From: Sedimentisphaerales bacterium
GTDB taxonomy: Bacteria > Planctomycetota > Phycisphaerae > Sedimentisphaerales > Anaerobacaceae
Assembly: GCA_016931715.1 (NCBI GenBank)
Contig: JAFGEF010000107.1
Span: 21,932-85,931 of the forward strand
DNA length: 64,000 nucleotides
Reading direction: 5' to 3'
In this document: in pieces, positions 16,778 through 57,928 of the stretch
Layout of the letters: the number at the start of each line of letters is the position of its first letter
How positions within the stretch are numbered: the stretch's first letter is position 1
Made by a program: the position numbers and the translations under genes
Notes under the pieces: model-generated
Told to the model about the DNA's origin: nothing
Database searches by the model: none
The model's input: the letters and a program-made list of their open reading frames with translations, nothing else

Positions 16778-16905
16778 AATTTTCCAAGAACCTCTAACAA
16801 AAAGAATCGTGTCGCGGGCATCTTGCCCGCGAAACATTACCATGATGGTAATGCTGTATCTTAAAAATTCATTTTGTTACAGGCTCCAAAATATTGTTTT
16901 CTTTT

Positions 16906-18693: not shown

Positions 18694-18697
18694 TTTT

Positions 18698-20461: not shown

Positions 20462-20469
20462 AAATAATA

Positions 20470-22254: not shown

Positions 22255-22267
22255 TTTGAAAGTTTAT

Positions 22268-24112
22268 TTAAATAATATTTTTCCTGATTCTTCTTTTAGC
22301 CAGCCATGCAAAAAACAAGCCAAATAAGCTGTAAGCCGTCATAATATACAGAAGCAGTTTAGTTGTAGAATACACATTACCGACATTTCTAAAATAATAT
22401 GAAAGATAAGGCCAGTCATATTTCAGGCCGGTAAGGCTCGAATTTGCATTATAAGCGCCGCCGGCGGCATCCATAACAACTCCAATCTGGACGATTGGAT
22501 TGATACAATAATATATTCCGGATAATTCTCTGTATAACTCTCTGTTGCGGATGATCTCTGTCACTATCCTCAGGCTGACCGGAACAAACACCCATATCAC
22601 AAGCGCAAACGCAAAACATATTATAATCGCCCATGTAGTTCGCTTGAAACACGAGCTTGCATACAAGCCGAAACCGGTAAGAAAAATCATCAAGCCGGAA
22701 ACAACTATTAATAACTGTAAAAAAGCTATCGGATTAATATATCCGACAATGGTAAATAAAAAGATATGCCCCGCCAACAAAAGCCATACGGGAAGACACT
22801 TATAAAACACGCCCAGCGCTTTTCCCTGCACAATCTGCCAGTCATCGAGCGAAGTTGTCAGCAGGATAGGCCAGGCCATAGATTCCTTTTCAGAAGTAAT
22901 GCACGATACAGACAGAACAAGATTAAAAATTATGCCGATTATTACAAACATAACAGCATATAGAAAGTGCACGTATCCTTCAGCGAGGCAATTGCTCGTA
23001 TAGCATACATAATAAGTCAACAGCAAAGTTACAACAGTAGCCGCAAGACCGACTTTATTATTTGTTCTGTCTATGCCCTGAATTAGGGGCTTTCTTATTT
23101 CTTTCCACATGACCGGCTGCCCTGTTACTTCTCTTACCGAACCTTCGTATTCTTTCAGTGAATCTCTTTTCGTATTTGAAAAGGACAACCTTAGTCTCGA
23201 GAACAGGTCAAGCTCTCCCAAAATCTGACGAAGAGCCACCCTGCGAACAACTTTAACGGAAAAGGCAAGTACCAGGGCGGAAGCAATCAGCATTATGATG
23301 CAATTAATAGGCCAGAAAAAAAATGGTATAGTCGCCGCCGGCGACATCATGATAACAGTATTAAGCGACATTGTTCCCAAAGGATTGAGATGAAGAAACG
23401 CAATCAATAAAGGAAACATTGAAATCCGTCTGCTGTAATTTAACACATAGAGCCATTGCTCCCCGAAAACTGCCGCCAGTATTAAAGGCAGAACTATATA
23501 AACAACACCGATAGTAAATACTGCCTTGATAATAACAACGTAAGTATGAATATTTTTTATTGAAAAAGCCAGGCTGATCGAACCTGCGAATATCGATGCA
23601 CTTAGTGTTATGAAAAAGCTGGAAATAATATAGCCCCACGGCACGCCGCCGAAAACACGAACTATAGCGAGTATCGGAAGGCTTATCGCCAGCAAAATAA
23701 TAATTTGCAGCAATTTGCTGAATAATTTTCCAATTACAATCTGAAGGCTGTTTATGGGAGTAGTCATCAGCACACCTAAAGTGCGATGATATATTTCGTC
23801 ACTGATGGAATTGCTTAAAAGAATAACAGCTAATATCTGCGCCGCGAAAAACTGAAAAACGACTATGGTAAGAACGATGCTCTTTCCTATCTCCGCCAGT
23901 CTGGATTTCTGATACGCCAGTGTTCCATGCAATTGTCCATAGCTGAGCCATGTTCCGACAACAAAGGAAGTCAGAAGAATTACATATGCAAAGCGCAGGT
24001 AATAATTGCGTCTTCGCCTGCTTGAAACGCGAAGCTCCTTATCGAACAAAGGCCCGGTCAGCCAGAAAAATCTTAAAAATTTTATACAAGGATTTATGGT
24101 TAAGCTCGCCAT
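22268..24112 (-). CDS. ABC-2-type double permease, paralogue P2
   Basis: Motifs are TGPLFDKELRVSSRRRRNY, SISDEIYHRTLGVLMTTPINSLQIVIGKLFSKLLQ and ITSEKESMAWPILLTTSLDDWQIVQGKA. Confidence 0.7.
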   Translation of the reverse strand: MASLTINPCIKFLRFFWLTGPLFDKELRVSSRRRRNYYLRFAYVILLTSFVVGTWLSYGQLHGTLAYQKSRLAEIGKSIVLTIVVFQFFAAQILAVILLSNSISDEIYHRTLGVLMTTPINSLQIVIGKLFSKLLQIIILLAISLPILAIVRVFGGVPWGYIISSFFITLSASIFAGSISLAFSIKNIHTYVVIIKAVFTIGVVYIVLPLILAAVFGEQWLYVLNYSRRISMFPLLIAFLHLNPLGTMSLNTVIMMSPAATIPFFFWPINCIIMLIASALVLAFSVKVVRRVALRQILGELDLFSRLRLSFSNTKRDSLKEYEGSVREVTGQPVMWKEIRKPLIQGIDRTNNKVGLAATVVTLLLTYYVCYTSNCLAEGYVHFLYAVMFVIIGIIFNLVLSVSCITSEKESMAWPILLTTSLDDWQIVQGKALGVFYKCLPVWLLLAGHIFLFTIVGYINPIAFLQLLIVVSGLMIFLTGFGLYASSCFKRTTWAIIICFAFALVIWVFVPVSLRIVTEIIRNRELYRELSGIYYCINPIVQIGVVMDAAGGAYNANSSLTGLKYDWPYLSYYFRNVGNVYSTTKLLLYIMTAYSLFGLFFAWLAKRRIRKNII

Positions 24113-24124
24113 ATTATTAATAAC

Positions 24125-25855
24125 TTAAAAGATATTACACCTTAATTTTTGTATTGATAGCTTCAATAAATACAAACCTGCTGCTGTATAAACAGCAGTC
24201 ATTACAAATATCGAAGCAATATTATAATAAGCAACAGAAAAAGGAGTCATAAGACGAACAAAAATTAACACAAATAAATAATTCAAGATAAATTCCACTA
24301 AAAAAATACCTATTGTAGCAATGACAGCCGCCATGGAGTTTTTCATACGTACACCGAAATATGCACCGCAACCAACAATAAATAATACCCTGCTAATAAT
24401 ACTTGCTGCTGAAATCGGAATCTGATAAATAATTTGAGAGAATCTAATAATTCCTTGTGAACTATAGGAAAAATATATAAAAAAACGCAGAACAAAATAT
24501 AATGCGAGCAAACTGATATTTCTCATAAGAGCAGCTTTAACTTTACTGAGAATAATATCCTTATCTTCGAGAGGAGTCACCAGTAATATCGGTAAAGTCC
24601 TCGCCTCTTTCTCGCCAGCAATACTTCCTGCTATAGAAATAGCAAGACGGAGCATAAGTATAAGATACAGACCGGAAATCGTGAAACTAAGCATTACTAT
24701 TGATAGACGATTTCGTAAAACAAGCAATAACATAATTCCAAATATGCAAAGCAGGTAAATTGTTATCGTTACTATCTTGTCAATTTTCCCCTTTCCGAAG
24801 AAATATCCATAATTTTCTTTCCAGACAATTGGATTTCCGATAACTCGTATGATACGTTCTGAATATTCATTACCGCAATATCTTTCTTTCCATATAATAG
24901 GTATGCCGTACACTTTTCTAATATAGTCCGAATATTCGTAATAGTGTTTTCTCTCTGAATCTTCTACATCTTTTATCAGAACTTTTGACTCGATATTTTT
25001 ACGCCTGACAATCATATCTCTAAAAGCGGCAGAACGTACTTTCCAAATCGAAAAAACCAATAAAACAGCAGAAGCGCTCAACATAATCATACAGTGTATT
25101 AAAATGTTTATCGAATTGGCTGGTTTCTGTTCAGCAGCCGCAACCATAGCTAAAAATGGATTTACATTAACAAAAATTGCGAGAACTTCACTGTTGCTGA
25201 ACGAAAGCTGGGTACATAAAAAAGGTAAAAGACCAAAGATAAAAAAATACCCGACAAAAATTAGTATAATAACACGATACGGGTAACGATTGAAAATAGA
25301 AAGAAACAGGCTCAAAGAACCAGCAAAAATTACAGAGGTTAATGTAATAAATAAACCGAATACTACATAATTCCAGGGTATGCCTCCGAAGACACGCATA
25401 ATTGCCAGCAAAGGCAAACTCATCGCCAACAGTAATAACACCTGTAAAAGTTTGCTTAACAGTTTTCCCGTAACTATTTTGAAACTGCTGACTGGCGTCG
25501 TCATAAGCACATTTAATGTCCCCGTGCGGATTTCATCGCTTATCGAAGAGCTGAGCATAACAATCGCGAGAATCTGAGAGGCAATAAATTGAAACCAGAC
25601 AATAGCAATTATTGCATTCTTTCCTATTTGCGATGACCTTGATGCCTGGAATATAGCAGAACTCTTACTCCCGGCGCCAATCACTGAGAGCCACATAAAT
25701 AAAATAAAAACGGCTAATAAAATAATATAAGCTGAACGAAGCAGGTAATTTCTTTTTCTCCGGCTCGAAACGCGAAGCTCCTTATCGAAAATCGGTCCGA
25801 AAATCCGGGCCGGATTGAAGAAGTCCAAAAAAAGATTTATTGATTCCGCTTTCAT
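24125..25855 (-). CDS. ABC-2-type double permease, paralogue P1 (first after the ATPase)
   Basis: Motifs are FGPIFDKELRVSSRRKRNY, SISDEIRTGTLNVLMTTPVSSFKIVTGKLLSKLLQ and IAGEKEARTLPILLVTPLEDKDIILSKV. Confidence 0.7.
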   Translation of the reverse strand: MKAESINLFLDFFNPARIFGPIFDKELRVSSRRKRNYLLRSAYIILLAVFILFMWLSVIGAGSKSSAIFQASRSSQIGKNAIIAIVWFQFIASQILAIVMLSSSISDEIRTGTLNVLMTTPVSSFKIVTGKLLSKLLQVLLLLAMSLPLLAIMRVFGGIPWNYVVFGLFITLTSVIFAGSLSLFLSIFNRYPYRVIILIFVGYFFIFGLLPFLCTQLSFSNSEVLAIFVNVNPFLAMVAAAEQKPANSINILIHCMIMLSASAVLLVFSIWKVRSAAFRDMIVRRKNIESKVLIKDVEDSERKHYYEYSDYIRKVYGIPIIWKERYCGNEYSERIIRVIGNPIVWKENYGYFFGKGKIDKIVTITIYLLCIFGIMLLLVLRNRLSIVMLSFTISGLYLILMLRLAISIAGSIAGEKEARTLPILLVTPLEDKDIILSKVKAALMRNISLLALYFVLRFFIYFSYSSQGIIRFSQIIYQIPISAASIISRVLFIVGCGAYFGVRMKNSMAAVIATIGIFLVEFILNYLFVLIFVRLMTPFSVAYYNIASIFVMTAVYTAAGLYLLKLSIQKLRCNIF

Positions 25856-44318: not shown

Positions 44319-47300
44319 ATGAAAAATGTAAACATAATCCTAACAATAATTTTCATCATAATAATCTCCTTTACATATGCATCCCAGATAAGAGCAGATT
44401 ATCCAGTTATGTCGCAGCATTATGCCGCTGATCCTACGGCAATTGAATGGGACGGTCGATTATATGTTTATTGTTCCAATGACCAGGAAAACACTGAAAA
44501 TAGCGGCTATATCATGGATTCCATCGTTTGTTTCTCGACGGATGACCTTAAAAACTGGACTGACCACGGAATAGTTTTTGATGCGGATGATGTTTCATGG
44601 ATAGGGACCGCATGGGCCCCGTGTATCGTTCAAAACCATAACAAGCTATACCTTTATTTTGGAGATCCTTATTGGGGTATTGGTGTCGTAACGAGTACCT
44701 CCCCGACGGGTCCGTTTACTGCTCCAAAGAATGGTCTGGTAGTGAAACGCTCAACCCTCTCGGGAGGTACTTCTGGTGCAGATAGCACATGGCTCTTCGA
44801 TCCTGGTGTGTTAGTCGACGATAACGGCCAGCCATATCTCTTTTTCGGTGGAGGCGGATCCAATCAAGCCCGCTATGTATTGCTGGATACAAACATGTAT
44901 GATGCTATAAGTTCAGCTTATCCAATTAATTTCCCGGATTTCTTTGAAGCATCGCATATGCACAAATACAACGGAATTTATTATTATTCCTATGCTGACA
45001 ATTATGACAATAACTACAACAATCCAGCGCCGACACCTGGATCTCAAATCGCATACATGACAAGTTCCAATCCGACAGGCCCATTTGTGTATCAGGGCAT
45101 AGCCCTTGGGCCGCCACCTGATAATTATGGAAATAACAATCACCATACATTTTTTACCTTTCTGGGGCAATGGTATTGTGTGTACCATAATCGCTATCAA
45201 GCGGGGATTGACGGAGTTTCGACCACAGAGCATCGAAATATTTGTCTTGACAGGATGGAATATAATCCCGATGGAACAATCCAGCCTGTCGTTCCAACTA
45301 TCGATGGTCTAACACAATTAAAGTGTCTCGATCCCTGCATAAGAGTAGAAGCTGAAACAATCGCGCAGCAAAGCGGTATCAAAACCGAGACATGCTCGGA
45401 AGGTGGTATGAATGTAACCTCCATTGAAAATGGAGACTGGATACGACTGCGCGGTGTAGATTTTGGTACGGACGCGAATAGTTTTGGTGCTCGTGTTGCC
45501 AGTACTCATTTCAGCGGAAGCATAGAACTGCGGCTGGACAGCCTAAATGGAACCGTGATAGGAACTTGCTTTGTTCCAAATACCGGGGATGCTCAAACAT
45601 GGACTACGGCGTATTGCTCTATATACGAAGCATCTGGTATTCATGATCTTTATCTGAAATTCAAGGGTGATCAGGACAAGAATCTGTTCAATATAAACTG
45701 GTGGCAGTTCGATATAAAATATGACGATGATGTGATTATAGAAACTCTTCCCGATCCAATCCATCTCTATAGCTTTAATGAACAAGGCGGAAATCGGATT
45801 TATGACTCATTCGGTTCGGCTGATGGATGGGTAATTAATGGAGGTGTGTTGAATAATGGAATCCTGAATCTTTCCAAGTCGTTGAGCCAATATGTGGATC
45901 TACCGGATGGACTCGTAAGTTCACTAACTGATTGTACAATTGCCGCCTGGATCAAACTTAACTCTGTCGATAATTGGGTACGCATTTTTGACTTCGGCTC
46001 CGGAACAGGAGTAAATATGTTCCTTACTCCGACTTACTGGGGAAATGCACTTCGTTTTGGGATAAAAAACGATGGCACAGAGCAGAACATCAATTCAACC
46101 CAGGGTCCATTGACGACAGGTTTGTGGACGCATGTCGCAGTCACCCTGCAGGGAAATACCGGTGCTCTCTATGTCAATGGCGTAAAGGCTGGACAGAGTA
46201 ATTCTATAACATGGAATCCAGGTGATCTTGGTGATACGACGCAGAATTGGCTGGGACGTTCGCAATGGAACGATCCTTATCTCGATGGTCAGTTCGACGA
46301 GTTCCGAATTTACGATGTTGCCTTTTCTGCGAATGAGGCCGCATGGCTTTTTGAAGGCGGAGAACCACGTGAATTTGTTTCAGGAACAACGGTCGAGAAG
46401 GTTGAGATCAACGCATCCGAAACTCACCAGACTATCGAAGGTTTGGGCGGAGCGATATGTTTTTATAACGGGTGGTTTACAGCACATCCCTGCAAGCAGG
46501 AAATTTTTGACTATGCTTTTAGCGGTTTAAATCTTTCGATGCTGCGGATTGGTAACTGGTGGCGCGGTGTTAATGGTCAGGATACTGCAATCTATGAAAT
46601 AGCTGAAGCTGCTAATCAAAGATTGGGGCATCCTGTGCCGATTCTGATAAGTTCGTGGTCACCGCCAGCATATTTGAAGAGTAATGGTGAAGTAGGTAAT
46701 GGAGGAACCCTAATCAAAAAAGATGGAGTTTATGATTACACAGGATTTGCCGACTACTGGTACGATTCGATTCAGGACTATATTGCACATGGTATTACTC
46801 CTGCATGGATCGGCATACAGAATGAACCGGACTGGACCGCTCCTTATGATTCGTGCAGGTTTAATCCAAGTGAAGCCCAATGGGACGGACAAAATTACGC
46901 AAGCTTTGCTCTGGCACTTGATGCAGTTCACCAGAAACTGGAAGATGGTATGGCTTCGCCGCCAAAACTGCTTGGACCTGAAAATGTAGGCGTCGGCTAT
47001 AATTGCCTTCAGGATTTTATGGCGGAAATGAACACTGACAGTTTTTACGGGATTGCGCACCACCTCTATAACGGCAGTATCGACAGCAGTCCAGACGGAT
47101 ACAACATGGCTTTTAATGATGTATTGAACACGACAAAAAATCTGTTTCCGGGCAAACCGAGATTCATGACCGAATACGGAGATATTGATGGATTGATACC
47201 GTGCGCGAATTTGATTCACAACTCCCTCGTTGTCGAGCAGGTCAGCGGATACAACCACTGGAGTTTGATTTGGCCCAAAAATAGAAATGATCCAAATGAT

Positions 47301-48635
47301 AATCCCTCCAACGGAAATACGTCACTGGTTGAGATCGAGTTTCCATGGGATTCAAGTGATTGGATAAGTCCAAAGGGCTACTGGATCAACCCGTCTTATT
47401 GGTCGATGAAGCATTATTCTTATTTCATAGAGCCAGAATATAAACGAGTAACGACCCAATCCAGCAATTACGACCTCATGACATCAGCCTTCATTTCGCC
47501 TGACCATAACAGGCTGGTTACTGTGATAATCAATAGAAGCACAGAGTCCCCCGCCATAGTGACATTGGATGTCAATTCTTTTGACTATGATTACTCTCGC
47601 ATCTATCAGAGCATGGGCGATAATCATTTCGAATCACTTGGCAATCTTCACAATTTACAGGTCACTGTACCGGTATCATCAATAACTACAATTGTTCTGG
47701 ATAAAGAAGTGGAGGTCGGGCAGGCCGGCAATCCTACACCTGCTGACTGCGAAACAGGGCAACCCAAAAATGTGACATTGACATGGACACCCGGAACCAG
47801 CGCAACAAGTCATGCGATCTATTTAGGGACGGATTGTAACGCAGTAGCAACTGCAACACCGGAATCGCCGGAATATCAGGGTACAGTTCCAACATCGAGT
47901 TTTATGCCAGAGTCACTTTCTTCCAGTACGACTTATTACTGGTCAGTAGATGAGATAGCCTATTCGAGTATTTGTCCGGGCCAGGTTTGGTCGTTCAGTA
48001 CCGCGCCAGCCGTGTTACATGCTCATCTTAAGTTTGATGAAAAACGCGGCACCGGAGTCTCCGATTCCACAGGCAACGGCTGGAATGGTACGCTTGTTAA
48101 CGGTGGTCTATGGACATCCGGCAAGTCTGGCAATGCGGCAGATTTGGATGGCAGCAATGACTATGTAAGTCTGCCTGCCGGTGTGGTCGATGGCTTGACC
48201 AATTATACGATTTCCTCATGGGTGCACCTTGATACAGTCAGTACATGGTCCCGAGTGTTTGATTTCGGAAGCGGAACTACAAAAAGCATGTATTTAACCC
48301 CGCAGTGTGGTGGGTCGAATACAGTGCGCTTTGCCATCACTACAGGCGGCTCCAGCGGAGAACAGCAAATAAATGGCACTGCCGCGATTCCGTCTGGTGT
48401 CTGGACTCACGTGGCCGTGACATATCAAGCTGGTACTGGTATTCTTTATATTGATGGAATTGAAGTTGGCCGCAACAATAATATATCCCTTACTCCTTCT
48501 TCGCTCGGCCGCACAATGCAAAACTACATCGGCAAGTCCCAATGGCCTGATCCATATCTCAATGGGCGTGTGGATGATTTCCGCATATACTCCGATGTGC
48601 TGAGCGCTTCTGAAGTAGCTGCATTAGCCAAATAA
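44319..48635 (+). CDS. secreted multidomain glycoside hydrolase: GH43, CBM6, LamG, a clan GH-A (GH30-like) barrel, an FN3-like module and LamG
   Basis: A strong RBS (GAGGAG) lies 7 nt upstream and the signal peptide is MKNVNIILTIIFIIIISFTYASQIRA. GH43 motifs are ADPTAIEWDGRLYVY, WAPCIV and FEASHMHKY. The CBM6-like part runs IRVEAETIAQQSG...WWQF. The two LamG modules are (I/V)FDFGSG...WTHVAVT...DEFRIY and DDFRIY. The clan GH-A catalytic motifs are IQNEPD and FMTEYG. Confidence 0.85.
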   Translation: MKNVNIILTIIFIIIISFTYASQIRADYPVMSQHYAADPTAIEWDGRLYVYCSNDQENTENSGYIMDSIVCFSTDDLKNWTDHGIVFDADDVSWIGTAWAPCIVQNHNKLYLYFGDPYWGIGVVTSTSPTGPFTAPKNGLVVKRSTLSGGTSGADSTWLFDPGVLVDDNGQPYLFFGGGGSNQARYVLLDTNMYDAISSAYPINFPDFFEASHMHKYNGIYYYSYADNYDNNYNNPAPTPGSQIAYMTSSNPTGPFVYQGIALGPPPDNYGNNNHHTFFTFLGQWYCVYHNRYQAGIDGVSTTEHRNICLDRMEYNPDGTIQPVVPTIDGLTQLKCLDPCIRVEAETIAQQSGIKTETCSEGGMNVTSIENGDWIRLRGVDFGTDANSFGARVASTHFSGSIELRLDSLNGTVIGTCFVPNTGDAQTWTTAYCSIYEASGIHDLYLKFKGDQDKNLFNINWWQFDIKYDDDVIIETLPDPIHLYSFNEQGGNRIYDSFGSADGWVINGGVLNNGILNLSKSLSQYVDLPDGLVSSLTDCTIAAWIKLNSVDNWVRIFDFGSGTGVNMFLTPTYWGNALRFGIKNDGTEQNINSTQGPLTTGLWTHVAVTLQGNTGALYVNGVKAGQSNSITWNPGDLGDTTQNWLGRSQWNDPYLDGQFDEFRIYDVAFSANEAAWLFEGGEPREFVSGTTVEKVEINASETHQTIEGLGGAICFYNGWFTAHPCKQEIFDYAFSGLNLSMLRIGNWWRGVNGQDTAIYEIAEAANQRLGHPVPILISSWSPPAYLKSNGEVGNGGTLIKKDGVYDYTGFADYWYDSIQDYIAHGITPAWIGIQNEPDWTAPYDSCRFNPSEAQWDGQNYASFALALDAVHQKLEDGMASPPKLLGPENVGVGYNCLQDFMAEMNTDSFYGIAHHLYNGSIDSSPDGYNMAFNDVLNTTKNLFPGKPRFMTEYGDIDGLIPCANLIHNSLVVEQVSGYNHWSLIWPKNRNDPNDNPSNGNTSLVEIEFPWDSSDWISPKGYWINPSYWSMKHYSYFIEPEYKRVTTQSSNYDLMTSAFISPDHNRLVTVIINRSTESPAIVTLDVNSFDYDYSRIYQSMGDNHFESLGNLHNLQVTVPVSSITTIVLDKEVEVGQAGNPTPADCETGQPKNVTLTWTPGTSATSHAIYLGTDCNAVATATPESPEYQGTVPTSSFMPESLSSSTTYYWSVDEIAYSSICPGQVWSFSTAPAVLHAHLKFDEKRGTGVSDSTGNGWNGTLVNGGLWTSGKSGNAADLDGSNDYVSLPAGVVDGLTNYTISSWVHLDTVSTWSRVFDFGSGTTKSMYLTPQCGGSNTVRFAITTGGSSGEQQINGTAAIPSGVWTHVAVTYQAGTGILYIDGIEVGRNNNISLTPSSLGRTMQNYIGKSQWPDPYLNGRVDDFRIYSDVLSASEVAALAK

Positions 48636-49741: not shown

Positions 49742-50237
49742 CTTTTTGCCCTTTCATAATTTTCATTTTATTTGGTAATTGAGAATTTATTCAAATACTG
49801 AACTTGTTGTCAACAGAACCACAAAAATCGAAATCAAAATAGGTTTGTGTTTCATTATGTACCTCCTTTCAAAAATAATCACATATATGTTCTTATTTTC
49901 TTATTTCCACATTTTAGCACTAAAACAAGAAATGTTAAGATATTTTTCGTTTATTGGCATTTTTATAGTAAATATTTTGGCATCGCCATACGCCGTATAT
50001 ATGGCAATTGTTTTTCTTGTTGTTTTTTATGAAAATAGGAAGGAATAAGAAGTTTTGAATTAACTAACAACTAAAGACTAAAAACTATTGATTGCCACAT
50101 AGGGCACAGAAAATAAAGAGATTTTAGCCATAAGCAAAAACATTGCGCTTTGCGCAATAAATAGCAGTCAAACAGGCCGCAGAGAGAAAATACCTGATAA
50201 ATATTGATAATTATGTATGAATTGTGCTTTATTATTG

Positions 50238-50264
50238 TTGACATAAACGCTCTATTGTTATAAA
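50238..50264 (+). promoter_or_regulatory. sigma70-like promoter candidate (TTGACA, 15 nt spacer, TGtTATAAA extended -10)
   Basis: TTGACA lies at 50238-50243. TATAAA lies at 50259-50264, preceded by TGT. It points towards the 43-codon ORF at 50310-50441 and the FRG gene. Promoter consensus in this lineage is unknown. Confidence 0.25.
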
Positions 50265-50441
50265 TAGCATATGTAGTAAAGACGGTCGTACTGAATATTC
50301 GGATCGTCGGTGAGCTTGAGTATTAACGTCGGGCTTAAAGAAAAAGCGAATCGCCTTCCTATTCATGCGGCTGTCATATATTTTACCAAGAAGAAACGCG
50401 AAGAAAAGGACGCTATTGATGTCATACTAAAAACTAAATAA

Positions 50442-50475
50442 TTAACCACGAATTAACACTAATGAACACGAATTA
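50442..50475. repeat. short intergenic repeat module M1 (left copy)
   Basis: The sequence ttaaccacgaattaacactaatgaacacgaatta matches the reverse complement of part of 59521-59561 at 26 of 34 positions by hand alignment. It is low complexity, so support is weak. Confidence 0.35.
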
Positions 50476-50588
50476 TGTAAAACAAGGAGATAGAGGTTTT
50501 TATTAAGAATTAGACACTAATCCGCCAAATTAGTTCTGGCGGACTAAAAGGCACAAAGGTTATGGTAATATTATAGAGCAAGAGTACT

Positions 50589-50912
50589 ATGAAAAGAGTA
50601 GTTGACTACGATGAACTCGCAGGCGAGTTAAATAGTTTCGAAAATAAAGTAGCCCTTCATCCAAATTGGTTATTTAGAGGTCAGACAAATAGCGATTGGA
50701 CTTTGAAACCTTCTTTTACAAGAATAGCGGAAAAAAGGAGGCTTAGCAGAAATCAAGCTCTCCAATTAGAGCGTGAAGCTGTGCATAAGTTCTCTATAAG
50801 CGGAAGCAAGCTTCTGCCGCTAAAGTATACGATCGACTTGACCCTATCGCGTTTCAAGTCTCAGAATGGTGCTGGCATTGATTTTGGGAGATTATTGGTA
50901 GTAAGACAATGA
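50589..50912 (+). CDS. FRG-domain protein, apparently a truncated N-terminal fragment (possible pseudogene)
   Basis: The stretch HPNWLFRGQTNSDWTLKPSFTR is the eponymous FRG motif. The ORF stops after 107 aa, before the region that normally follows in FRG proteins of about 250 aa. Confidence 0.5.
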   Translation: MKRVVDYDELAGELNSFENKVALHPNWLFRGQTNSDWTLKPSFTRIAEKRRLSRNQALQLEREAVHKFSISGSKLLPLKYTIDLTLSRFKSQNGAGIDFGRLLVVRQ

Positions 50913-51006
50913 GATTAAACAATTAAATATTAGCTCGAGTTGGTGGAAAATGTGATGTTGTATGGCCCCAAACAAATATTAGCAGGGCTCAGTTAGGTGA
51001 AACAAA

Positions 51007-51774
51007 ATGACAGTAGACGAATATCTGCAAAAATTGGTTAATAAATATCGAGTTCCAGCTGTTGCACAAGGAACGCCAGAATTTAAAGCAGCAAACTCAA
51101 TATATCCAATTATACAAAGATGGGCAGGCAACCAATTAAGAGAAGTTACTTTTTCTGGCTCTAATGCCAAAGGCACAGCTATACGTGGGAGAACAGATGT
51201 AGATTTATTTATATCCTTAAAATCGGACACAAATGAAACCTTAAAAGAAATATTTAACAGTCTATATAATTATATGGTTCAGAATGGATATTCTTCCACA
51301 AAGAAACAACATGTTTCTATTCATATAGTTCATAGTGGTATTGAAGTTGATTTAGTTCCTGCAAAACACTTCGGTGGTAATACCGAGGACCATTGGCTTT
51401 ATGTGAATAGACCAAACAGAGAAAGAATAAAAACTAACGTTAATGAACACATTAACTTGGTAAGGGATTCGAACCGGACAAATGAAATAATCCTAACAAA
51501 AATCTGGCGACTAAATCATAACTTGGATTTCCCGTCGTTTTATCTGGAGCTTGTTGTTATCGAAGCGTTGAAATATAAACGTGTAGGACTTTCAGAAAAT
51601 TTCTTATCAGTTCTGGAATATCTATCAAACAGTTTTATCTCGGCTCGTTTCATTGATCCAGCGAATACAAACAATATCATTTCTGATGATCTCGCAGACA
51701 TTGAAAAGAAAGCCATTGCCAGTCAGGCAAAGAAAAGCAAGGCAGAACGGTTATGGGAAAGTATTGTATGGTAA
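51007..51774 (+). CDS. Pol-beta superfamily nucleotidyltransferase, OAS/CD-NTase/SMODS-like
   Basis: The stretch FSGSNAKGTAIRGRTDVDLFISL gives the GS...GT...DxD signature, and the third acidic residue is in IEVDLVPA. The helical C-terminal half contains TKIWRLNHNLDFPSFYLELVVIEAL and IDPANTNNIIS, as in OAS/CD-NTase-type enzymes. Confidence 0.7.
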   Translation: MTVDEYLQKLVNKYRVPAVAQGTPEFKAANSIYPIIQRWAGNQLREVTFSGSNAKGTAIRGRTDVDLFISLKSDTNETLKEIFNSLYNYMVQNGYSSTKKQHVSIHIVHSGIEVDLVPAKHFGGNTEDHWLYVNRPNRERIKTNVNEHINLVRDSNRTNEIILTKIWRLNHNLDFPSFYLELVVIEALKYKRVGLSENFLSVLEYLSNSFISARFIDPANTNNIISDDLADIEKKAIASQAKKSKAERLWESIVW

Positions 51775-52493
51775 AACCTAAGAATCAAATCGATATCAGA
51801 GAAATATTTTTAGGTATGCAACGGCAGATGCGCACAAAGCTTACTTTGAACAGAAAAATATTGACTCACCCTGTTGTAAAAGGTGATGTAAGTGAAGCGG
51901 AATGGATTGACATGCTTTCATCGTATTTGCCAAGCCGCTATCGAGTTGATAAGGCATTTGTTATTGATTGCGACGGCATTGTGAGCGATCAAATTGACAT
52001 TGTTATTTATGACCGCCATTATTCGCCTTTTATTCTCAAACAAAACGGCTCAACGTATATCCCTGCCGAAAGTGTTTATGCAGTGATCGAGGTCAAACCA
52101 ACTTTGACTGCGAAAAATATTGACTACGCCGCACATAAAGCCTATTCTGTACGAAGACTTAAACGCACAACTGCACGAATTGTTCATGCAGCTGGAGAAA
52201 TAAAAAAGCCTAAAAAACCATTCAATATTCTGGCGGGAATTTTAACAATAGATGGTAAATGTACCGATGCCTTGAAGACAAAACTTATGAAACTGCCCAA
52301 GAAGCAGACTTTGCAATTCGGGTGTTCACTTGACTATGTTTCATTCTGGTTAAAGAAGAATAAATTTGAGAAGAGTTTGCAGACAGACGCACTGATTTTC
52401 TTTTTTATTAATTTACTATCGGAGCTTCAGCAATTAGGGACGGTGAGTGCAATTAATTTGAAAGCATATATAAAAACCTTTAAGGAAAAATAA
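51768..52493 (+). CDS. DUF6602-like PD-(D/E)xK (restriction-endonuclease fold) protein
   Basis: The stretch THPVVKGDVSEAEWIDMLSSYLPSRYRVDKAFVIDCDGIVSDQIDIVIYDRHYSPFILKQNGSTYIPAESVYAVIEVKPTL matches my memory of the DUF6602 core (E...YLP..Y...D..G..S.Q.DIVIYD...P.E.VYAVIEVK). The start is either ATG 51753 or ATG 51768. The latter overlaps the NTase stop as ATGGTAA. Confidence 0.65.
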   Translation: MVKPKNQIDIREIFLGMQRQMRTKLTLNRKILTHPVVKGDVSEAEWIDMLSSYLPSRYRVDKAFVIDCDGIVSDQIDIVIYDRHYSPFILKQNGSTYIPAESVYAVIEVKPTLTAKNIDYAAHKAYSVRRLKRTTARIVHAAGEIKKPKKPFNILAGILTIDGKCTDALKTKLMKLPKKQTLQFGCSLDYVSFWLKKNKFEKSLQTDALIFFFINLLSELQQLGTVSAINLKAYIKTFKEK

Positions 52494-52543
52494 TATTATT
52501 TTATTATATACAAAATAATATGAATAGCTATTAGGATAATCCA

Positions 52544-54328
52544 ATGGAACCGGAAAAACTAAAACCATACAAATCGTTTTTATTTTGTACGATTGCAGAT
52601 ATTCCTGTCACAACAGTAAGTGATGATATTGAGGAACTGGTAAAAGGAAAAGAAGGTACTGTTCTTTCAAGAAATAATCTTGAACCAGAAGGTTTGGAAA
52701 TATCATTATTTACTTATATTGATAAAATAACACCTCCTTGGAGTAATGATGAATCTGTAAAAGATATTATTAATGAATTAGTAGTAGTAGTTAAAAAGAA
52801 TAAATATATTGCTATTTATTCTTCAAATACATCTATTCGAGATACTATCAGAAGTTTTATATCTGGCACAAAGAAGAAAAAAGAAAATAAATTTACTTAT
52901 CTAAAACTTATTCCGCGCGGTTTACTAAACGCTGCTTTTATTAAAGGACAAACTCAAACATTATGGCTGTCAGGAACACATAGACGAACCGCTTCAAAGG
53001 TGGATAATAAAATTATCAACGGTCTTGATTTGCGATACGCTTTAGATCCGTTGGGTGATCAGTCATTTTTCTTTACTGCCGCAAGATGCAAGCTCCCGAC
53101 TAATATATTTAAAAATCTTATTGGTATATCGCCCAGAAAAAGTTCTCTATGGGCGGGTTTTTCTAAACAATGGGATGATTTTATTGTTAGTACAAAATTA
53201 CTATTAAACCTTTTAGAAGATACCAAAAAGCCTAATCAGAATCCATTACCAATATTAGCTGAAAGTATTAATGGATTAAATGACTTAGAAAATATTGGTA
53301 AATGTTATGATGCTGCAATTATTCCCCCCATATTGCTTGCAGAAACAGATATAGACTCTAATGATCGAAAAGATGCTGAAATGTGGAATGAATTGCATTT
53401 TGAAATAGTTTCGACTGAAAGCTCATTGAATTTTAAGGCGGAAGTTTCGTTATTTGAAATTGATAAGTTAAATAACATCGGAACATTTTCATTTACGTTT
53501 GATGATTTGACTATGTTACCACAGGTTGAATACAAAATTGAAGGTGAAGCAGCATCATCGGAGAATCAAGAAATTTTTAACAAAGCTCTTAATATGTTAC
53601 AAACTAATAAGAATTGGCTAAAAGTATGGTATGATTCAGGACATGTCATTGCAGAAAGAGAAATCTTTTTGCACCGGTTTCGTGATATGCCTTTTATGCA
53701 TTTTGAAGGACAAGCTTTAATTAATATCTCTATTAAAAATGAAAAGCCGCCTTATCCGATCGAGGATAATATTGGAAAGCATAAGTCACTTTTTTGTTAT
53801 GTTAAGAATACACTAACGAAAGGTTGGTTGACTTGTGATGATGGATCAATGGAAATGGCTGATTTTATTCATTTTAATAAAATCACGGATAAACCAACAA
53901 TCTCTCTCATTCATGTAAAGGCTTCCAAAAAAAATGAACCAAAACGTAATATGGCGGTATCTGATTATGAAATAGTTGTTAGCCAGGCAATTAAGAATAT
54001 TCGATATTTGAGCACAGATAATTTATTGGAAGGCTTAACAGCCGGGTTGAAAAAGAAGATACAAAATGCTACATGGAAGGATGGGAAAAAGCAGAGTAAT
54101 GGACGCAAAGGGATGCTAAAAGAAATTGAAAAATGTGGAACCAACATTTCTTATAAAGTTATTGTTTTTCAACCGCGTGCTCGTATTTCAGAAATTGAAA
54201 AGACCAGAGTAAATAAGAAGGGAAAATCATATAAGATTTTGCAACAACTTGATACTTTATTATTGGGAGCCAGTCATGATTGTCAATCTGCAGGAGCAGA
54301 ATTTATAGCTTGGATAGATGGTAGTTGA
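52544..54328 (+). CDS. 594-aa hypothetical protein with a C-terminal endonuclease-fold-like motif
   Basis: AGGA lies 7 nt upstream of the ATG. About 420 aa at the N-terminus have no recognisable family. The C-terminus reads CDDGSMEMADFIHFNKITDKPTISLIHVKASKK...VSDYEIVVSQAIKNIRYL and is reminiscent of sporadically distributed TIGR04141/DUF6119-type proteins (tentative). Confidence 0.55.
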   Translation: MEPEKLKPYKSFLFCTIADIPVTTVSDDIEELVKGKEGTVLSRNNLEPEGLEISLFTYIDKITPPWSNDESVKDIINELVVVVKKNKYIAIYSSNTSIRDTIRSFISGTKKKKENKFTYLKLIPRGLLNAAFIKGQTQTLWLSGTHRRTASKVDNKIINGLDLRYALDPLGDQSFFFTAARCKLPTNIFKNLIGISPRKSSLWAGFSKQWDDFIVSTKLLLNLLEDTKKPNQNPLPILAESINGLNDLENIGKCYDAAIIPPILLAETDIDSNDRKDAEMWNELHFEIVSTESSLNFKAEVSLFEIDKLNNIGTFSFTFDDLTMLPQVEYKIEGEAASSENQEIFNKALNMLQTNKNWLKVWYDSGHVIAEREIFLHRFRDMPFMHFEGQALINISIKNEKPPYPIEDNIGKHKSLFCYVKNTLTKGWLTCDDGSMEMADFIHFNKITDKPTISLIHVKASKKNEPKRNMAVSDYEIVVSQAIKNIRYLSTDNLLEGLTAGLKKKIQNATWKDGKKQSNGRKGMLKEIEKCGTNISYKVIVFQPRARISEIEKTRVNKKGKSYKILQQLDTLLLGASHDCQSAGAEFIAWIDGS

Positions 54329-54340
54329 GTTAGGATTTGT

Positions 54341-55066
54341 ATGGGAAAGCAACGATTATTAGTAAGTATTAGAGGTAAAAAGGAAGCTTTAGCAGCAATA
54401 AAAGGTGGTGCTCAAATTGCTGATGTCGAATTTCCGGCTTCGGCCTTAGGGACACCGTATCCGTTAAATATTCGAGTAGTTAGAAATGCTATGCCCAAGC
54501 ATATCAAAGTTGCAACCAATATCGGCGAGGAACAGTCTGGTCGTTCAAGTGCATGTCAGGCAGCTTTAGGTGTGGCGTTGGCGGGGGCAGATATTGTCAA
54601 ATTAGGCCTTGCTAAAATGTCTCTTGGTGAAGCAAAAGAGTTCGGGCCGGCACTCGTTAGAACGGTCAAGAAATGGTTTCCGCGAAAGCAATGTATTCCA
54701 GCATTATTTGCTGATGAACGTCTGGCCAATTGGTATATTGACCCTATAAAACAAGGACCTGAATTAGCAGAACTTATGAAAGCAGATGGATTATTGGTGG
54801 ATACTTTTGATAAATCACTTGGAAAAGGTCTGATGGATTATTATACAATTGGTGATATCAGAAAATTTGTAAAGAAATGCCATGATAGGAATATTGAGGC
54901 ATGGTTGGCAGGAAGTATTGGTAAAGATGAACTTCCTGATTTGTGGGAAGCTGGGGTTGATGTTGTTTGTGTTCGTGGTGCTGCTTGTAAGTCGGGTACA
55001 GGACCGGGAAGATTTGGAGAAGTTGATACAAAACTTGTGAAAGAACTAATTAGTACTATTCCATGA
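54341..55066 (+). CDS. MfnB/DUF556-like class I aldolase TIM-barrel ((5-formylfuran-3-yl)methyl phosphate synthase family)
   Basis: Supporting blocks are LLVSIRGKKEALAAIKGGAQIADVEFPASALGTPYP, GADIVKLGL, LLVDTFDKSLGKGL, EAWLAGSIG and VDVVCVRGAAC. Their order and spacing match the family pattern. Confidence 0.6.
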   Translation: MGKQRLLVSIRGKKEALAAIKGGAQIADVEFPASALGTPYPLNIRVVRNAMPKHIKVATNIGEEQSGRSSACQAALGVALAGADIVKLGLAKMSLGEAKEFGPALVRTVKKWFPRKQCIPALFADERLANWYIDPIKQGPELAELMKADGLLVDTFDKSLGKGLMDYYTIGDIRKFVKKCHDRNIEAWLAGSIGKDELPDLWEAGVDVVCVRGAACKSGTGPGRFGEVDTKLVKELISTIP

Positions 55067-55890
55067 CAGCTGAAGAAAAGAACCAGAATAAAGGATATTT
55101 GAATGGTGCTCGAGTTTATCTTTCGGGTCCCATGGATTTTGTTGCTTCTCGCGAAGAAGAAAAAAAGAATGGATGGCGGATTCGTGTAAAACAATTCCTC
55201 CAGTCCTACGGAGCAATAGTTTTTGATCCATGGGAAAAGCCTAAAGTTCGTGGCCTTCATGAATATGGCAAAGAAGGTGTTGTTTCAATCAATGTACGCG
55301 AGAATTGGACATTTGAAGAAAGTAGAAAGGGTGCTGAAATACGTTCTGAATGTGCTCAAAAATTTTATGAAACCATGCATATAGATTTAAGAATGGTTGA
55401 TATAAGCGATTTTGTAATTGCATATTGCCCGACAAATATATATAGCGTTGGTACTCCTCATGAAATAATCACTGCAAGAAACCAGCAAAAGCCGGTTTTA
55501 TTTATTAGTACTCCGGTTGTATTTCCTGCTTTGGAGAATTTGAAAACTCATCTTAATAGCTCTGGAGATAAAGCTGGTTTGCAGTTATTAAACGAATTAG
55601 AAAATCAGGTTCCAATTAAACAAAATCCCAAAGGGATACCAAGTTTATGGTATATGCCTTTGATTGGAAGTAACAACTTTTTTGATAGTTTTGGTTTTTC
55701 TAAATATGCTGAAAAATATAAATGGTCTAAGTCTCCTTCAGATGATCTTGAACAGCATAATCCACCAAAGCGACCATTATTAGATTTTCTCAGGCAATTA
55801 AACATGAAGCTTCCACAAAAATGGAATATAAATAAAAATAAAATTGAAAAAGATGATGACTGGCTCTTGCTTGATATAAAGCAGGTATGA
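55063..55890 (+). CDS. nucleoside 2-deoxyribosyltransferase-like (NDT/LOG/DNPH1-superfamily) protein with a C-terminal extension of about 110 aa
   Basis: Supporting blocks are ARVYLSGPMDF, VFDPW and DLRMVDISDFVIAYCPTNIYSVGTPHEIITARNQQKPVLFIS. Together these give the YxxGP start, the acidic D, and the GTxxE(I/L)xxA...KPV pattern. The start is an ATGA overlap with the preceding gene. Confidence 0.55.
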   Translation: MTAEEKNQNKGYLNGARVYLSGPMDFVASREEEKKNGWRIRVKQFLQSYGAIVFDPWEKPKVRGLHEYGKEGVVSINVRENWTFEESRKGAEIRSECAQKFYETMHIDLRMVDISDFVIAYCPTNIYSVGTPHEIITARNQQKPVLFISTPVVFPALENLKTHLNSSGDKAGLQLLNELENQVPIKQNPKGIPSLWYMPLIGSNNFFDSFGFSKYAEKYKWSKSPSDDLEQHNPPKRPLLDFLRQLNMKLPQKWNINKNKIEKDDDWLLLDIKQV

Positions 55891-55915: not shown

Positions 55916-57928
55916 CTATACAGATTTTTCCACAATTTCTTCTGATAAAGTATAATTATAATACTGAAGACCTGTTTCAGATTCCTCTATAGTATCAGCA
56001 TTACCAACCGATGCAGACAAAGGTTTATCACACTTTATTATAGCAATATCAATATGACACTTATAGTTCTGGCAAGTATTATTACGCATAGATAATAAGT
56101 CATATAGATTGGAAGAATTTTCTTTAAATGTATTATTAAAATCAAAAATAAGATATAAACCAACTGTAGGCCTACCTTCAATCTTATCTTTTAGCATGTG
56201 TTGAACTAATTCTTTATCAATCCCTTGTTTCCAGTTACCGGAATCTTTCTTAAGCTCTATCCATAACTTATTTGGTTGTCGCTCAATGAGATAGTCACAT
56301 TGACCAAGTCCGCTATCTCCCTTTGGAGTTAATATTGCTCCTCGTTTACGAACATAGTGATCAAGTTGAAGTCTCATAAGAGCATCAATATTTTTTTCCT
56401 TGACAGGAATATTTTTCTCATACCAAAGTGCATTCCAAAAACCACCGAGGCGAATATCTTTTACCAAAGTTTTAAGAAAATCATGAATTCCTTCGAGAAG
56501 ACCTTTATTTCCTTTTTCAAAAGGTGCATCAATACTCTGTTGTGTTATTATAACTGTCTGAGTAGTATTCGTTACTTCATATAGGTGACTGCTAATGAGC
56601 GGCTCTAATCCCGATCTTTCAGGTAATTGTTTTATTCTTTCCATTAAATCATCGTGCATATTAACAATCTGGAATACTATTCCAGCATCTTTACTATGTT
56701 TATCACGTTTTTCTTCGTATCTCCACCCTCGCAATGCTTGGGCTCTACAACAAAATCGGCATCCATCCTTGCTATCAACAAGGGTCAGGTTAACAAAATT
56801 TATTACCCGCTTATGTTCCTGATTACGAAGTTTTATAGTAACTAGCTCATTCTTAAATCCTGTGCAATCTTCTATATAATCATCCCATTTGATATGGACA
56901 CCATTACCTTGGATAGCAAAATCAACAACAGTTCCATATAAATCTACTGTATTTTCTTCATACACACAATTGATTATGGCATTCCATCCGTTACCATTTC
57001 TTCGAAGTGGCCGAGGATCTCTTCCGCATAAACAAGGGATTAATTCAGATAAAGGACTTTGAAGTAAACGTCTTGTATCGATCATATCTCTATGTAATGC
57101 ATTTAAAATCTTATAAGCATCTTCGAAATATGATGAAATTAAAGATGGACGATTACAACTTAATCTATCTATGCCTGTCCTTTGTATGAGATTTGGTAAT
57201 TTTGATAAAACTCTTCGAACGTCGTATGTTTCCTGTTGTAGAGCTATTTCGGGATTACGTCTTACTGCAATATCAATCAGCTTTATTGTCTCAAGGATAT
57301 AGCGTGGCACTAATTCTTTTTTTACAGAGAGGATAGACTCGAGGATTTCTGACAGAAATACACTTGCTGATTTATTAACAGTCTCCGTATTGTCCGGTGA
57401 GAGGAGTGTCCCAATCCTTGAAACATATCCCGTAACAGCTCTCCCGAAATGTTCGGTTTCATTATAGAGACCTTCAAGACGAAGAAGTCTAAGGTAGCTT
57501 GGTAGGATCTTTTCATTAACATATTGTAAATCCGATATCCAACCTTCTAATACTTTTTGTGGATTGAGAATGCGGTTGTAATTTGGATTTTTTTGGGCCA
57601 ATACTTCCTCACCTCCAAGTCCATATTTCCATGTATCAAAAAGAATGGGGAATATCTTTTCGCACAATTCCTCTGCTTCGGGTATAAATGCTAATGATTT
57701 CATTATTTGTATAGCCCTTGCGCAAAATAAAGGACAATCTGGCCATTTAGCTTTATCCGTTAGTTCTTGAGCTTTATTGATAATACGAGCCTTCACACTT
57801 GATGTGAGTTTGCCTCCATGCAGAATGTATTCAATCTCTTCTAACATATTATGTCCTATTGTATTAACACAGGTGTGATTAAACCATTCGCTATGTGTAT
57901 CAATTGGTGTATTTTGTTTTCCTAACAT
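55916..57928 (-). CDS. 670-aa hypothetical protein: helical N-domain, PilZ-like barrel signature and PD-(D/E)xK-like C-terminal domain
   Basis: GGAG lies 9 nt upstream of ATG 57928. R306-P-L-R-R310 and D336-F-A-I-Q-G341 match the PilZ motifs. D545...E558-L-K560 (CDYLIERQPNKLWIELKK) matches a nuclease core. No family is assigned with certainty. Confidence 0.55.
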   Translation of the reverse strand: MLGKQNTPIDTHSEWFNHTCVNTIGHNMLEEIEYILHGGKLTSSVKARIINKAQELTDKAKWPDCPLFCARAIQIMKSLAFIPEAEELCEKIFPILFDTWKYGLGGEEVLAQKNPNYNRILNPQKVLEGWISDLQYVNEKILPSYLRLLRLEGLYNETEHFGRAVTGYVSRIGTLLSPDNTETVNKSASVFLSEILESILSVKKELVPRYILETIKLIDIAVRRNPEIALQQETYDVRRVLSKLPNLIQRTGIDRLSCNRPSLISSYFEDAYKILNALHRDMIDTRRLLQSPLSELIPCLCGRDPRPLRRNGNGWNAIINCVYEENTVDLYGTVVDFAIQGNGVHIKWDDYIEDCTGFKNELVTIKLRNQEHKRVINFVNLTLVDSKDGCRFCCRAQALRGWRYEEKRDKHSKDAGIVFQIVNMHDDLMERIKQLPERSGLEPLISSHLYEVTNTTQTVIITQQSIDAPFEKGNKGLLEGIHDFLKTLVKDIRLGGFWNALWYEKNIPVKEKNIDALMRLQLDHYVRKRGAILTPKGDSGLGQCDYLIERQPNKLWIELKKDSGNWKQGIDKELVQHMLKDKIEGRPTVGLYLIFDFNNTFKENSSNLYDLLSMRNNTCQNYKCHIDIAIIKCDKPLSASVGNADTIEESETGLQYYNYTLSEEIVEKSV

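Follow-up and report, generated by a model that had tools for sequence, protein, structure and literature searches.

A compact CD-NTase gene overlapping a NucC gene, a very probable Type I CBASS system in a Sedimentisphaerales genome

Results

A two-gene CBASS locus

We analyzed a 64,000-nucleotide stretch (hereafter, the window) of contig JAFGEF010000107.1 (GCA_016931715.1), from a metagenome-assembled genome (MAG) of Sedimentisphaerales (Planctomycetota), and found two overlapping forward-strand genes that very probably form a Type I (two-gene) CBASS, an anti-phage system that signals through cyclic oligonucleotides, pairing a cyclase predicted to make cyclic tri-AMP (cA3, also written cAAA) with a cA3-activated NucC endonuclease. 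The first gene (51007–51774, + strand) encodes a 255-aa CD-NTase, the oligonucleotide cyclase of CBASS, belonging to a compact ~254-aa subfamily closest to clades C and D, and the second (51768–52493, + strand) encodes the NucC effector (241 aa from the start favored by comparison). Both proteins have intact catalytic and ligand-binding residues, and the same accessory-free two-gene cassette is conserved in related loci, moving among different genomic contexts, plasmids and a viral contig. The locus is an under-annotated instance of a known, catalogued CBASS type, and not a new kind of system.

The cyclase and its active site

The first gene product matched the PADLOC cyclase model PDLC00803 (1e-85) over its entire length (protein residues 1–255 on model positions 1–253 of 253), as well as the Pfam families SMODS (2.5e-9, 38 bits against a cut-off of 26.5) and NTP_transf_2 (5.4e-6). 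A search for relatives returned 1,427 proteins (E ≤ 1e-3); among the 120 that were listed, almost all had a length of 253–255 aa. When the family profile was compared with the Protein Data Bank (PDB), the matches were CdnC (1.9e-11), Bacillus cereus CdnD (1.6e-10) and Pseudomonas aeruginosa CdnD (4e-7). We measured conservation in an alignment of 38 family members, and the AlphaFold2 model built on that alignment (pLDDT 94.3, pTM 0.89) predicts the two-lobe CD-NTase fold, with a nucleotidyltransferase (NTase) core and a C-terminal helical lobe. In Foldseek searches of the PDB with this predicted fold, the top 22 matches were all CD-NTases, led by E. coli CdnC (2e-13, TMq 0.76) and followed by P. 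aeruginosa CdnD, CdnE, CdnB and CdnG (E = 2e-13 to 1e-8 and TMq 0.7–0.8 across the five), with CCA-adding enzymes and NF90/NF45 ranked lower. The protein is thus a CD-NTase of the SMODS type, as an earlier model-made reading of the DNA letters (the first-pass annotation) had proposed; its nearest solved relatives are CdnC and CdnD, at only ~18% identity to CdnC.

The active-site motifs of this cyclase family could be aligned with those of E. coli CdnC (all on the + strand). The XGSX motif S50-G51-S52-N53 (51154–51165), which holds the GS of the NTase active site, aligns with SGSL; the catalytic, metal-binding DxD motif D64-V-D66 (51196–51204) aligns with DID; and the third catalytic aspartate, D115 (51349–51351) within IEVDLVPA, aligns with VDIVP. 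S50, G51, S52, D64, D66 and D115 were invariant in the 38 family members. In E. coli CdnC, the D72N/D74N mutant abolished immunity (bioRxiv 10.1101/694695). Furthermore, T143 and H148 of the segment TNVNEH (51433–51450) align with the T...H pair of E. coli CdnC at the same five-residue spacing and are each at least 90% conserved; they probably serve as lid residues. The cyclase motifs quoted in the first-pass annotation were located at residues 51–68 (GSNAKGTAIRGRTDVDLF), 112–119 (IEVDLVPA) and 216–223 (IDPANTNN).

A recent structural study of clades C and D summarizes how product relates to sequence: cAAA is associated with an XGSX motif that begins with Ser or Thr, combined with His at Lid 2, and cAAG with a QGSI motif combined with Gln at Lid 2 (PMC13424991, 2026). 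Because the window cyclase carries SGSN and its putative lid residues are T143 and H148, cAAA is its most likely predicted product. CdnC and P. aeruginosa CdnD produce cAAA, and are natural partners of NucC (bioRxiv 10.1101/694695).

The NucC effector

The second gene product matched the PADLOC CBASS effector model 'Endonuclease (NucC)' PDLC00745 at 2.5e-88, a second NucC model at 2.2e-60, and Pfam DUF6602 at 3.2e-33, in agreement with the first-pass proposal of a DUF6602 PD-(D/E)xK endonuclease. Five solved NucC sequences matched it at 9e-47 to 1e-41 over residues ~15–241 of 246 (numbering of the longer open reading frame (ORF) described below), among them those of Vibrio metoecus (9e-47), Serratia (2.9e-46) and E. 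coli MS115-1 (1.4e-43), and PDB 6Q1H (1e-41), which was deposited as 'Bacterial protein ORF C62'. When its sequence is taken from the alignment, E. coli NucC itself matches Pfam DUF6602 at 4.7e-30, and DUF6602 therefore corresponds to the NucC nuclease core. On these sequence comparisons the second gene is NucC, a predicted cA3-activated endonuclease.

The alignment with E. coli NucC was gap-free in the core, with a 9-residue offset, and allowed us to map functional residues directly. NucC enzymes carry the catalytic motif ID-x30-E-[AV]-K, and the roles of the cA3-contacting and gate-loop residues have been described, with activity lost in the D73N mutant (bioRxiv 10.1101/694703). In the window protein this motif lies at 51996–52097 (+ strand), where I81-D82...E113-V-K115 (246-aa numbering) corresponds to E. 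coli D73, E104 and K106 at the same 30-residue spacing. The residues of the cA3-binding pocket are scattered over 51936–52445 (+ strand): R62, Y90, T230 and V231 are all identical to E. coli R53, Y81, T226 and V227, and the gate-loop residue H145 corresponds to H136. Among 17 diverse NucC homologues (241-aa numbering), Y85, T225 and K110 were invariant, and R57, D77 and E108 were at least 90% conserved. The motifs YLPSRY, DIVIYD and AVIEVK occupy residues 58–63, 82–87 and 110–115 (246-aa numbering).

The gene junction

The cyclase gene ends in TGG TAA (51769–51774; stop codon TAA at 51772–51774), and the sequence ATGGTAA (51768–51774, + strand) forms a 7-nt overlap between the NucC start codon and the final Trp and stop codons of the cyclase. 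A second ATG in the same frame would give a 246-aa protein (51753–52493, + strand), and both candidate ATGs are upstream of the cyclase stop codon. These ORFs, the overlapping stop and start, and every motif quoted in the first-pass annotation can be read directly in the DNA. The genes overlap in 11 close relatives, and 10 of these retained the ATG equivalent to 51768, as either ATGGTAA or ATGGTGA; the ATG equivalent to 51753 was present, besides the window, in only 2 of those 11. In the closest relative, whose NucC is 94% identical, the public gene call also starts at the 241-aa position. Because the junction is kept in relatives and the public call of the closest relative agrees with it, 51768 is the better supported and more likely start. 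The resulting 241-aa product has the same length as E. coli NucC. The cyclase and NucC genes overlapped or were no more than 11 nt apart in 56 of 68 loci, and conserved translational coupling of the two is plausible from this arrangement.

Conservation of the pair across genomes

A scan of genome contigs with the single cyclase protein gave only 2 loci, and a metagenome scan with the alignment was the productive one. In total we gathered 89 cyclase-relative loci (L001–L089), which held 83 non-redundant cyclases, 81 of them with enough flanking DNA to judge. A NucC homologue lay directly downstream on the same strand in 69 of these 81 loci and nearby in another arrangement in 2, and 10 were without NucC. 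The pair was also carried by conjugative plasmids of Cupriavidus and Rhizobium, beside integrase, transposase and Abi genes; a phage collection contained no homologue of the cyclase.

We then viewed the association from the NucC side, considering the doubt raised in the first-pass annotation that DUF6602 homologues might usually occur away from any NTase. An adjacent CD-NTase was found in every evaluable locus (4 of 4): a 293-aa cyclase in a Type II-like operon that includes a ThiF/E1 gene, an SMODS+AGS_C cyclase beside NucC, the same minimal cyclase with NucC on an IMG/VR viral contig, and a Pseudomonas-like viral contig (L096) with the Type III gene order of cyclase, 214-aa ORF, 310-aa ORF and NucC, in which the two middle ORFs have the sizes of HORMA and TRIP13.

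Nothing else accompanied the pair consistently. Clustering of 691 neighbor ORFs from the 83 loci revealed no recurring accessory gene, and tblastn found no homologue of the genes neighboring the window pair (the FRG fragment, p594, the 4-HFC-P synthase-like and nucleoside deoxyribosyltransferase (NDT)-like genes, p670 and p279) in the 89 loci. The commonest neighbors were subunits of Type I restriction-modification systems, in at most 6 of 83 loci, which reflects co-location in defense islands, and the flanking genes were unrelated in every Pfam-labeled context examined. Even in the closest relative the flanks were wholly different, with a phosphonate transporter and an NB-ARC/TPR protein downstream.

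The regulators that define other CBASS types were also missing. When the window ORFs between 50589 and 57928 were compared with Pfam and PADLOC, no HORMA, TRIP13, Cap2 or Cap3 (E1/E2/JAB) gene was detected, and none recurred in the 83 related loci. The window likewise showed neither the spaced repeats of a CRISPR array nor an Rfam match, and none of its scanned ORFs contained a Cas domain. We therefore assigned the pair to Type I CBASS and, on the ORFs scanned, rejected the possibility that this NucC is an accessory of a Type III CRISPR-Cas system.

In some loci the cyclase is paired with another effector. In 5 of the 10 exceptions without NucC, it is accompanied by a protein of ~165 aa that has a single N-terminal membrane helix and matched the PADLOC CBASS '1TM' effector at 4.6e-61; its gene is directly upstream of the cyclase in L005, L022, L034 and L051, and downstream in L076. 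Such effector swapping inside one cyclase family is typical of CBASS. If the cyclase product is cA3 throughout, the ~165-aa 1TM protein would be a cA3-responsive membrane effector. At 6766–7860 of L005/L006, the usual NucC place downstream of a 55%-identical cyclase contains only ORFs of 63–83 aa, with the 1TM-like gene upstream, and this arrangement may represent effector replacement with a decayed remnant.

A second, different cyclase was observed next to NucC in three loci. In L060, L062 and L081, the minimal ~254-aa cyclase and NucC are followed, 20–57 nt downstream, by a ~434-aa protein; these proteins group with cyclases by BLASTP, and the representative from L081 matched the PADLOC cyclase PDLC00773 at 1.3e-83. 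At 6001–8131 of L091, a 449-aa cyclase (Pfam SMODS and AGS_C) comes after NucC, with no minimal cyclase upstream. Two cyclases flanking one NucC may be two sensors converging on one effector, or two systems side by side.

Neighboring genes and the rest of the window

Upstream of the pair, a 107-aa ORF (50589–50912, + strand) ends 94 nt before the cyclase and matches an FRG domain in its N-terminal part only, in Pfam at 6.3e-5 (slightly under the cut-off) and in the PADLOC candidate PDC-S15 at 1.3e-8 (approximately positions 26–111 of models 254–422 long). It looks like a truncated defense-candidate gene, possibly cut off by the arrival of the CBASS cassette. Downstream, a 594-aa protein (p594; 52544–54328, + strand) starts 50 nt after NucC. 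It had no Pfam or NCBIfam match, and its residues 397–493 partially matched the PADLOC candidate PDC-S71 (8e-13); p594 is probably an independent, uncharacterized defense-island gene. The GC content of this part is modestly lower than that of the window (40%), at 35% for the cyclase, 37% for NucC and 32% for p594, the lowest of the region. The FRG fragment, p594 and a GC content of 32–37% fit acquired DNA in a defense island. The borders of the locus showed no notable flanking direct or inverted repeats and no tRNA genes.

Further downstream, a 4-HFC-P synthase-like (UPF0264/MfnB-like) gene (54341–55066, + strand) overlaps by 4 nt a gene whose product weakly resembles nucleoside 2-deoxyribosyltransferases (55063–55890, + strand). 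The same two families overlap at 2951–4176 of L091, again beside a NucC gene, and the UPF0264 proteins of the two loci are 60% identical. In three other contexts of the UPF0264 gene (L098, L099 and L100) there was no NucC or NDT-like neighbor, and a different, defense-like pair of an AAA_15/AAA_21 ATPase and HNH stood beside it in L098 and L099. Pairwise comparisons, a homologue search and these three contexts led us to reject a functional link of the 4HFCP_synth, NDT and DUF6119 genes of L091 to NucC; they suggest instead that the UPF0264 gene is a conserved chromosomal gene bordering a variable defense-gene spot, and no component of CBASS.

On the opposite strand, a 670-aa protein (p670; 55916–57928, − strand) had no Pfam, NCBIfam or PADLOC match, and a PD-(D/E)xK-like pattern could be recognized by eye in its C-terminal part (...CDYLIERQPNKLWIELKKD...); it may be another uncharacterized island gene. 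Elsewhere in the window, a run of six tandem genes of ~576–618 aa (14987–25855, − strand), in which all three that were scanned carry ABC-2-type transporter membrane domains, suggests a paralogous array. This run is part of a long block of − strand genes, among them sugar-nucleotide epimerase/dehydratase, glycosyltransferase, C-methyltransferase and BatA/VWA genes. A protein of 1,438 aa that looks secreted (44319–48635, + strand), and whose gene has the highest GC of the region (45%), shows by eye glycoside-hydrolase-like regions and two LamG/laminin-G-like repeats ('...WVRIFDFGSG...', '...WSRVFDFGSG...').

Discussion

The proposed system and its relation to known systems

By analogy with characterized systems, we propose that phage infection would provide some cue that activates the 255-aa CD-NTase, which would then condense three ATP molecules into 3',3',3'-cAAA. 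One cAAA molecule would bind the three-fold pocket of a NucC trimer and close its gate loops, and two such trimers would pair into a hexamer, so that the juxtaposed active sites could cut double-stranded DNA with little sequence preference. Phage and host DNA would be destroyed together and the infection aborted. The overlapping ATGGTAA stop and start would keep sensor and effector co-expressed. The cA3 product, the NucC oligomerization mechanism and abortive infection at this locus are all carried over from those systems.

The first-pass annotation had left open whether the pair is a synthase-effector module or a toxin-type module, and knew of no characterized example. The synthase-effector part of that proposal is supported, and the toxin-type part is not. 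The pairing itself is far from novel: CD-NTase with NucC is among the best-studied CBASS combinations (bioRxiv 10.1101/694695, 10.1101/694703), and PADLOC holds full-length models that match both proteins. The XpCdnC03-NucC pair, a Type I operon, has been tested and is listed among those restricting phage, and minimal two-gene operons are stated to suffice for defense (Richmond-Buccola et al., bioRxiv 10.1101/2023.05.21.541620). The window locus resembles that system in its published makeup, an operon of just two genes, for a clade C-like CD-NTase and NucC, that lacks accessory regulators. It differs in its host, here a planctomycete MAG.

The Type III systems CdnC-HORMA-TRIP13-NucC of E. coli MS115-1 and CdnD-HORMA1/2-TRIP13-NucC of P. 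aeruginosa (PDB 6P80, 6P8J, 6P7O, 6Q1H) share with the window pair a NucC that is homologous over nearly its full length (1e-41 to 1e-43), its catalytic and cA3-pocket residues, and the cA3-type specificity motifs of the cyclase, and their cyclases are the closest solved structures. Unlike them, the window and its related loci lack HORMA and TRIP13 genes, and the window cyclase is ~65 aa shorter than CdnC (255 vs 321 aa, 18–19% identity), a difference that falls mainly in the C-terminal lobe. By sequence, the effector best matched the NucC proteins associated with Type III CRISPR systems of V. metoecus and Serratia (PDB 6UXF, 7ZGV), which are likewise activated by cA3 (bioRxiv 10.1101/694703); their signal comes from Cas10, whereas here a CD-NTase adjoins NucC. 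Finally, Damona, a single-gene DUF6602 defense cassette of Vibrio integrons that matches CBASS and CRISPR small-endonuclease profiles (bioRxiv 10.1101/2024.07.02.601686), has the DUF6602 nuclease domain in common with the window effector. Damona stands alone, without a cyclase, whereas the nuclease of the window is a NucC of full length that has a cA3 pocket and an adjoining cyclase.

Evidence weighing against a functional Type I system

Several observations count against reading the pair as a working Type I CBASS system. The cyclase's closest structural relatives, CdnC and CdnD, need HORMA proteins to be active (bioRxiv 10.1101/694695), and there is no HORMA gene here. We found no literature experiments on this locus or on the ~254-aa cyclase subfamily. 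The NCBIfam CBASS cyclase models, which have a cut-off of 200 bits, scored only 71.6 and 45.3 bits, and the cyclase is therefore no equivalog of those particular subfamilies. In the effector, Ile150 takes the position of Tyr141, the gate-loop latch in E. coli NucC, and is the sole difference among the mapped functional residues; the cA3-responsive NucC of V. metoecus also has no Tyr at the aligned latch position, and this residue may not define the NucC family. With regard to transcription, promoter-like sites were no commoner than in shuffled sequences (they were fewer). No + strand terminator-like site was present in 50000–54600; the sites that were found lay exclusively on the − strand and were roughly as numerous as in shuffled sequences, so that these scans set no limits to the transcript.

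The HORMA dependence of CdnC and CdnD bears on two further readings. It is possible, though we consider it unlikely, that the ~254-aa family is the most compact CD-NTase lineage, a CdnC/CdnD-like core with a trimmed C-terminal lobe and without a HORMA partner, that could sense infection, or stay inactive before it, by a mechanism undescribed for clades C and D. If so, the compact cyclase would be a minimal model of how a Type I CBASS cyclase is switched on.

Very improbable, by comparison, is a decayed Type III CBASS, in which HORMA and TRIP13 were lost and the CdnC-like cyclase and NucC persist as an inactive remnant. Such a history would be in line with closest solved relatives that are inactive alone, and the neighborhood has undergone decay, as the truncated FRG gene just upstream indicates. 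It is contradicted by the two-gene layout, the norm of this cyclase family across many phyla and plasmids (69 of 81 loci), and by the lack of any recurring HORMA- or TRIP13-like gene around the 83 loci. Moreover, both ORFs are intact, the catalytic residues are invariant and the length of ~254 aa is conserved, and Type I CdnC-NucC operons have been reported to be functional (bioRxiv 10.1101/2023.05.21.541620).

Other arrangements for the pair

Small pairs of an NTase and a toxin, such as MNT-HEPN, are an established class, and the window genes could in principle form a toxin-antitoxin-like pair in which the NTase modifies or neutralizes the nuclease directly, with no diffusible messenger. The plausible translational coupling of the genes would suit such a pair, as would a weak Epsilon_antitox match (0.089, far below the cut-off) and the existence of Damona as a standalone DUF6602 defense gene. 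We give this explanation very little credence: the NTase has the family signature and the predicted full two-lobe fold of a CD-NTase, not the minimal MNT fold, and the nuclease retains all the NucC residues that contact cA3, whose retention would make no sense if there were no cA3 ligand. Furthermore, the replacement of NucC by the 1TM effector in some loci is a hallmark of diffusible-signal modularity.

It is similarly doubtful, to the point of being hardly credible, that the pair belongs to a five-gene operon in which p594 and the 4-HFC-P synthase-like and NDT-like genes work on the nucleotide signal or together with it. The five share the + strand, and after NucC come a 50-nt gap, a 12-nt gap and the 4-nt overlap; no + strand terminator-like site lies in the segment mentioned above, and in L091 another NucC adjoins both an NDT-like gene and a 4HFCP_synth gene (60% identical, 6e-101). 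Against this, the three downstream genes have no homologue in the 89 cyclase loci, and the closest relative of the pair has other genes downstream. The 4HFCP-like gene occurs at 70–92% identity in more than 100 matches, with neither a NucC nor an NDT-like neighbor in the three contexts seen elsewhere, and p594 showed no BLASTP similarity to the DUF6119 protein that occupies the corresponding place in L091.

Lastly, the generic NTP_transf_2 match (5.4e-6) and the appearance of CCA-adding enzymes as weak sequence matches (0.006) and lower-ranked fold matches might point to an antibiotic (aminoglycoside/lincosamide-type) nucleotidyltransferase, an identity that the first-pass annotation had named as one that would weaken its reading, or to a CCA-adding/poly(A)-type enzyme neighboring a restriction-like nuclease by chance, but this is effectively refuted by best sequence, profile and fold matches that are all CD-NTases, by the lack of any ANT- or Lnu-type enzyme among the sequence, profile or top-50 fold matches, and by the conserved adjacency of NucC.

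Significance for annotation and biology

With the pair read as Type I CBASS, the main value of the locus lies in annotation. Such genes carry the public labels 'nucleotidyltransferase', 'hypothetical protein' or 'DUF6602 domain-containing protein', in the NCBI record of the window cyclase itself, in RefSeq plasmids and in others; an identical cyclase protein on record, from a Sedimentisphaerales MAG, is labeled just 'nucleotidyltransferase'. Recognizing DUF6602 as the NucC nuclease core, and the ~254-aa SMODS subfamily as a Type I CBASS cyclase, would relabel hundreds of loci in Planctomycetota, Omnitrophota, Nitrospirota and Paenibacillus, on rhizobial plasmids and elsewhere. This very compact, HORMA-less CdnC-like cyclase is useful for studying how Type I CBASS is activated. 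For the host, the locus adds a defense cassette to a poorly studied anaerobic planctomycete lineage.

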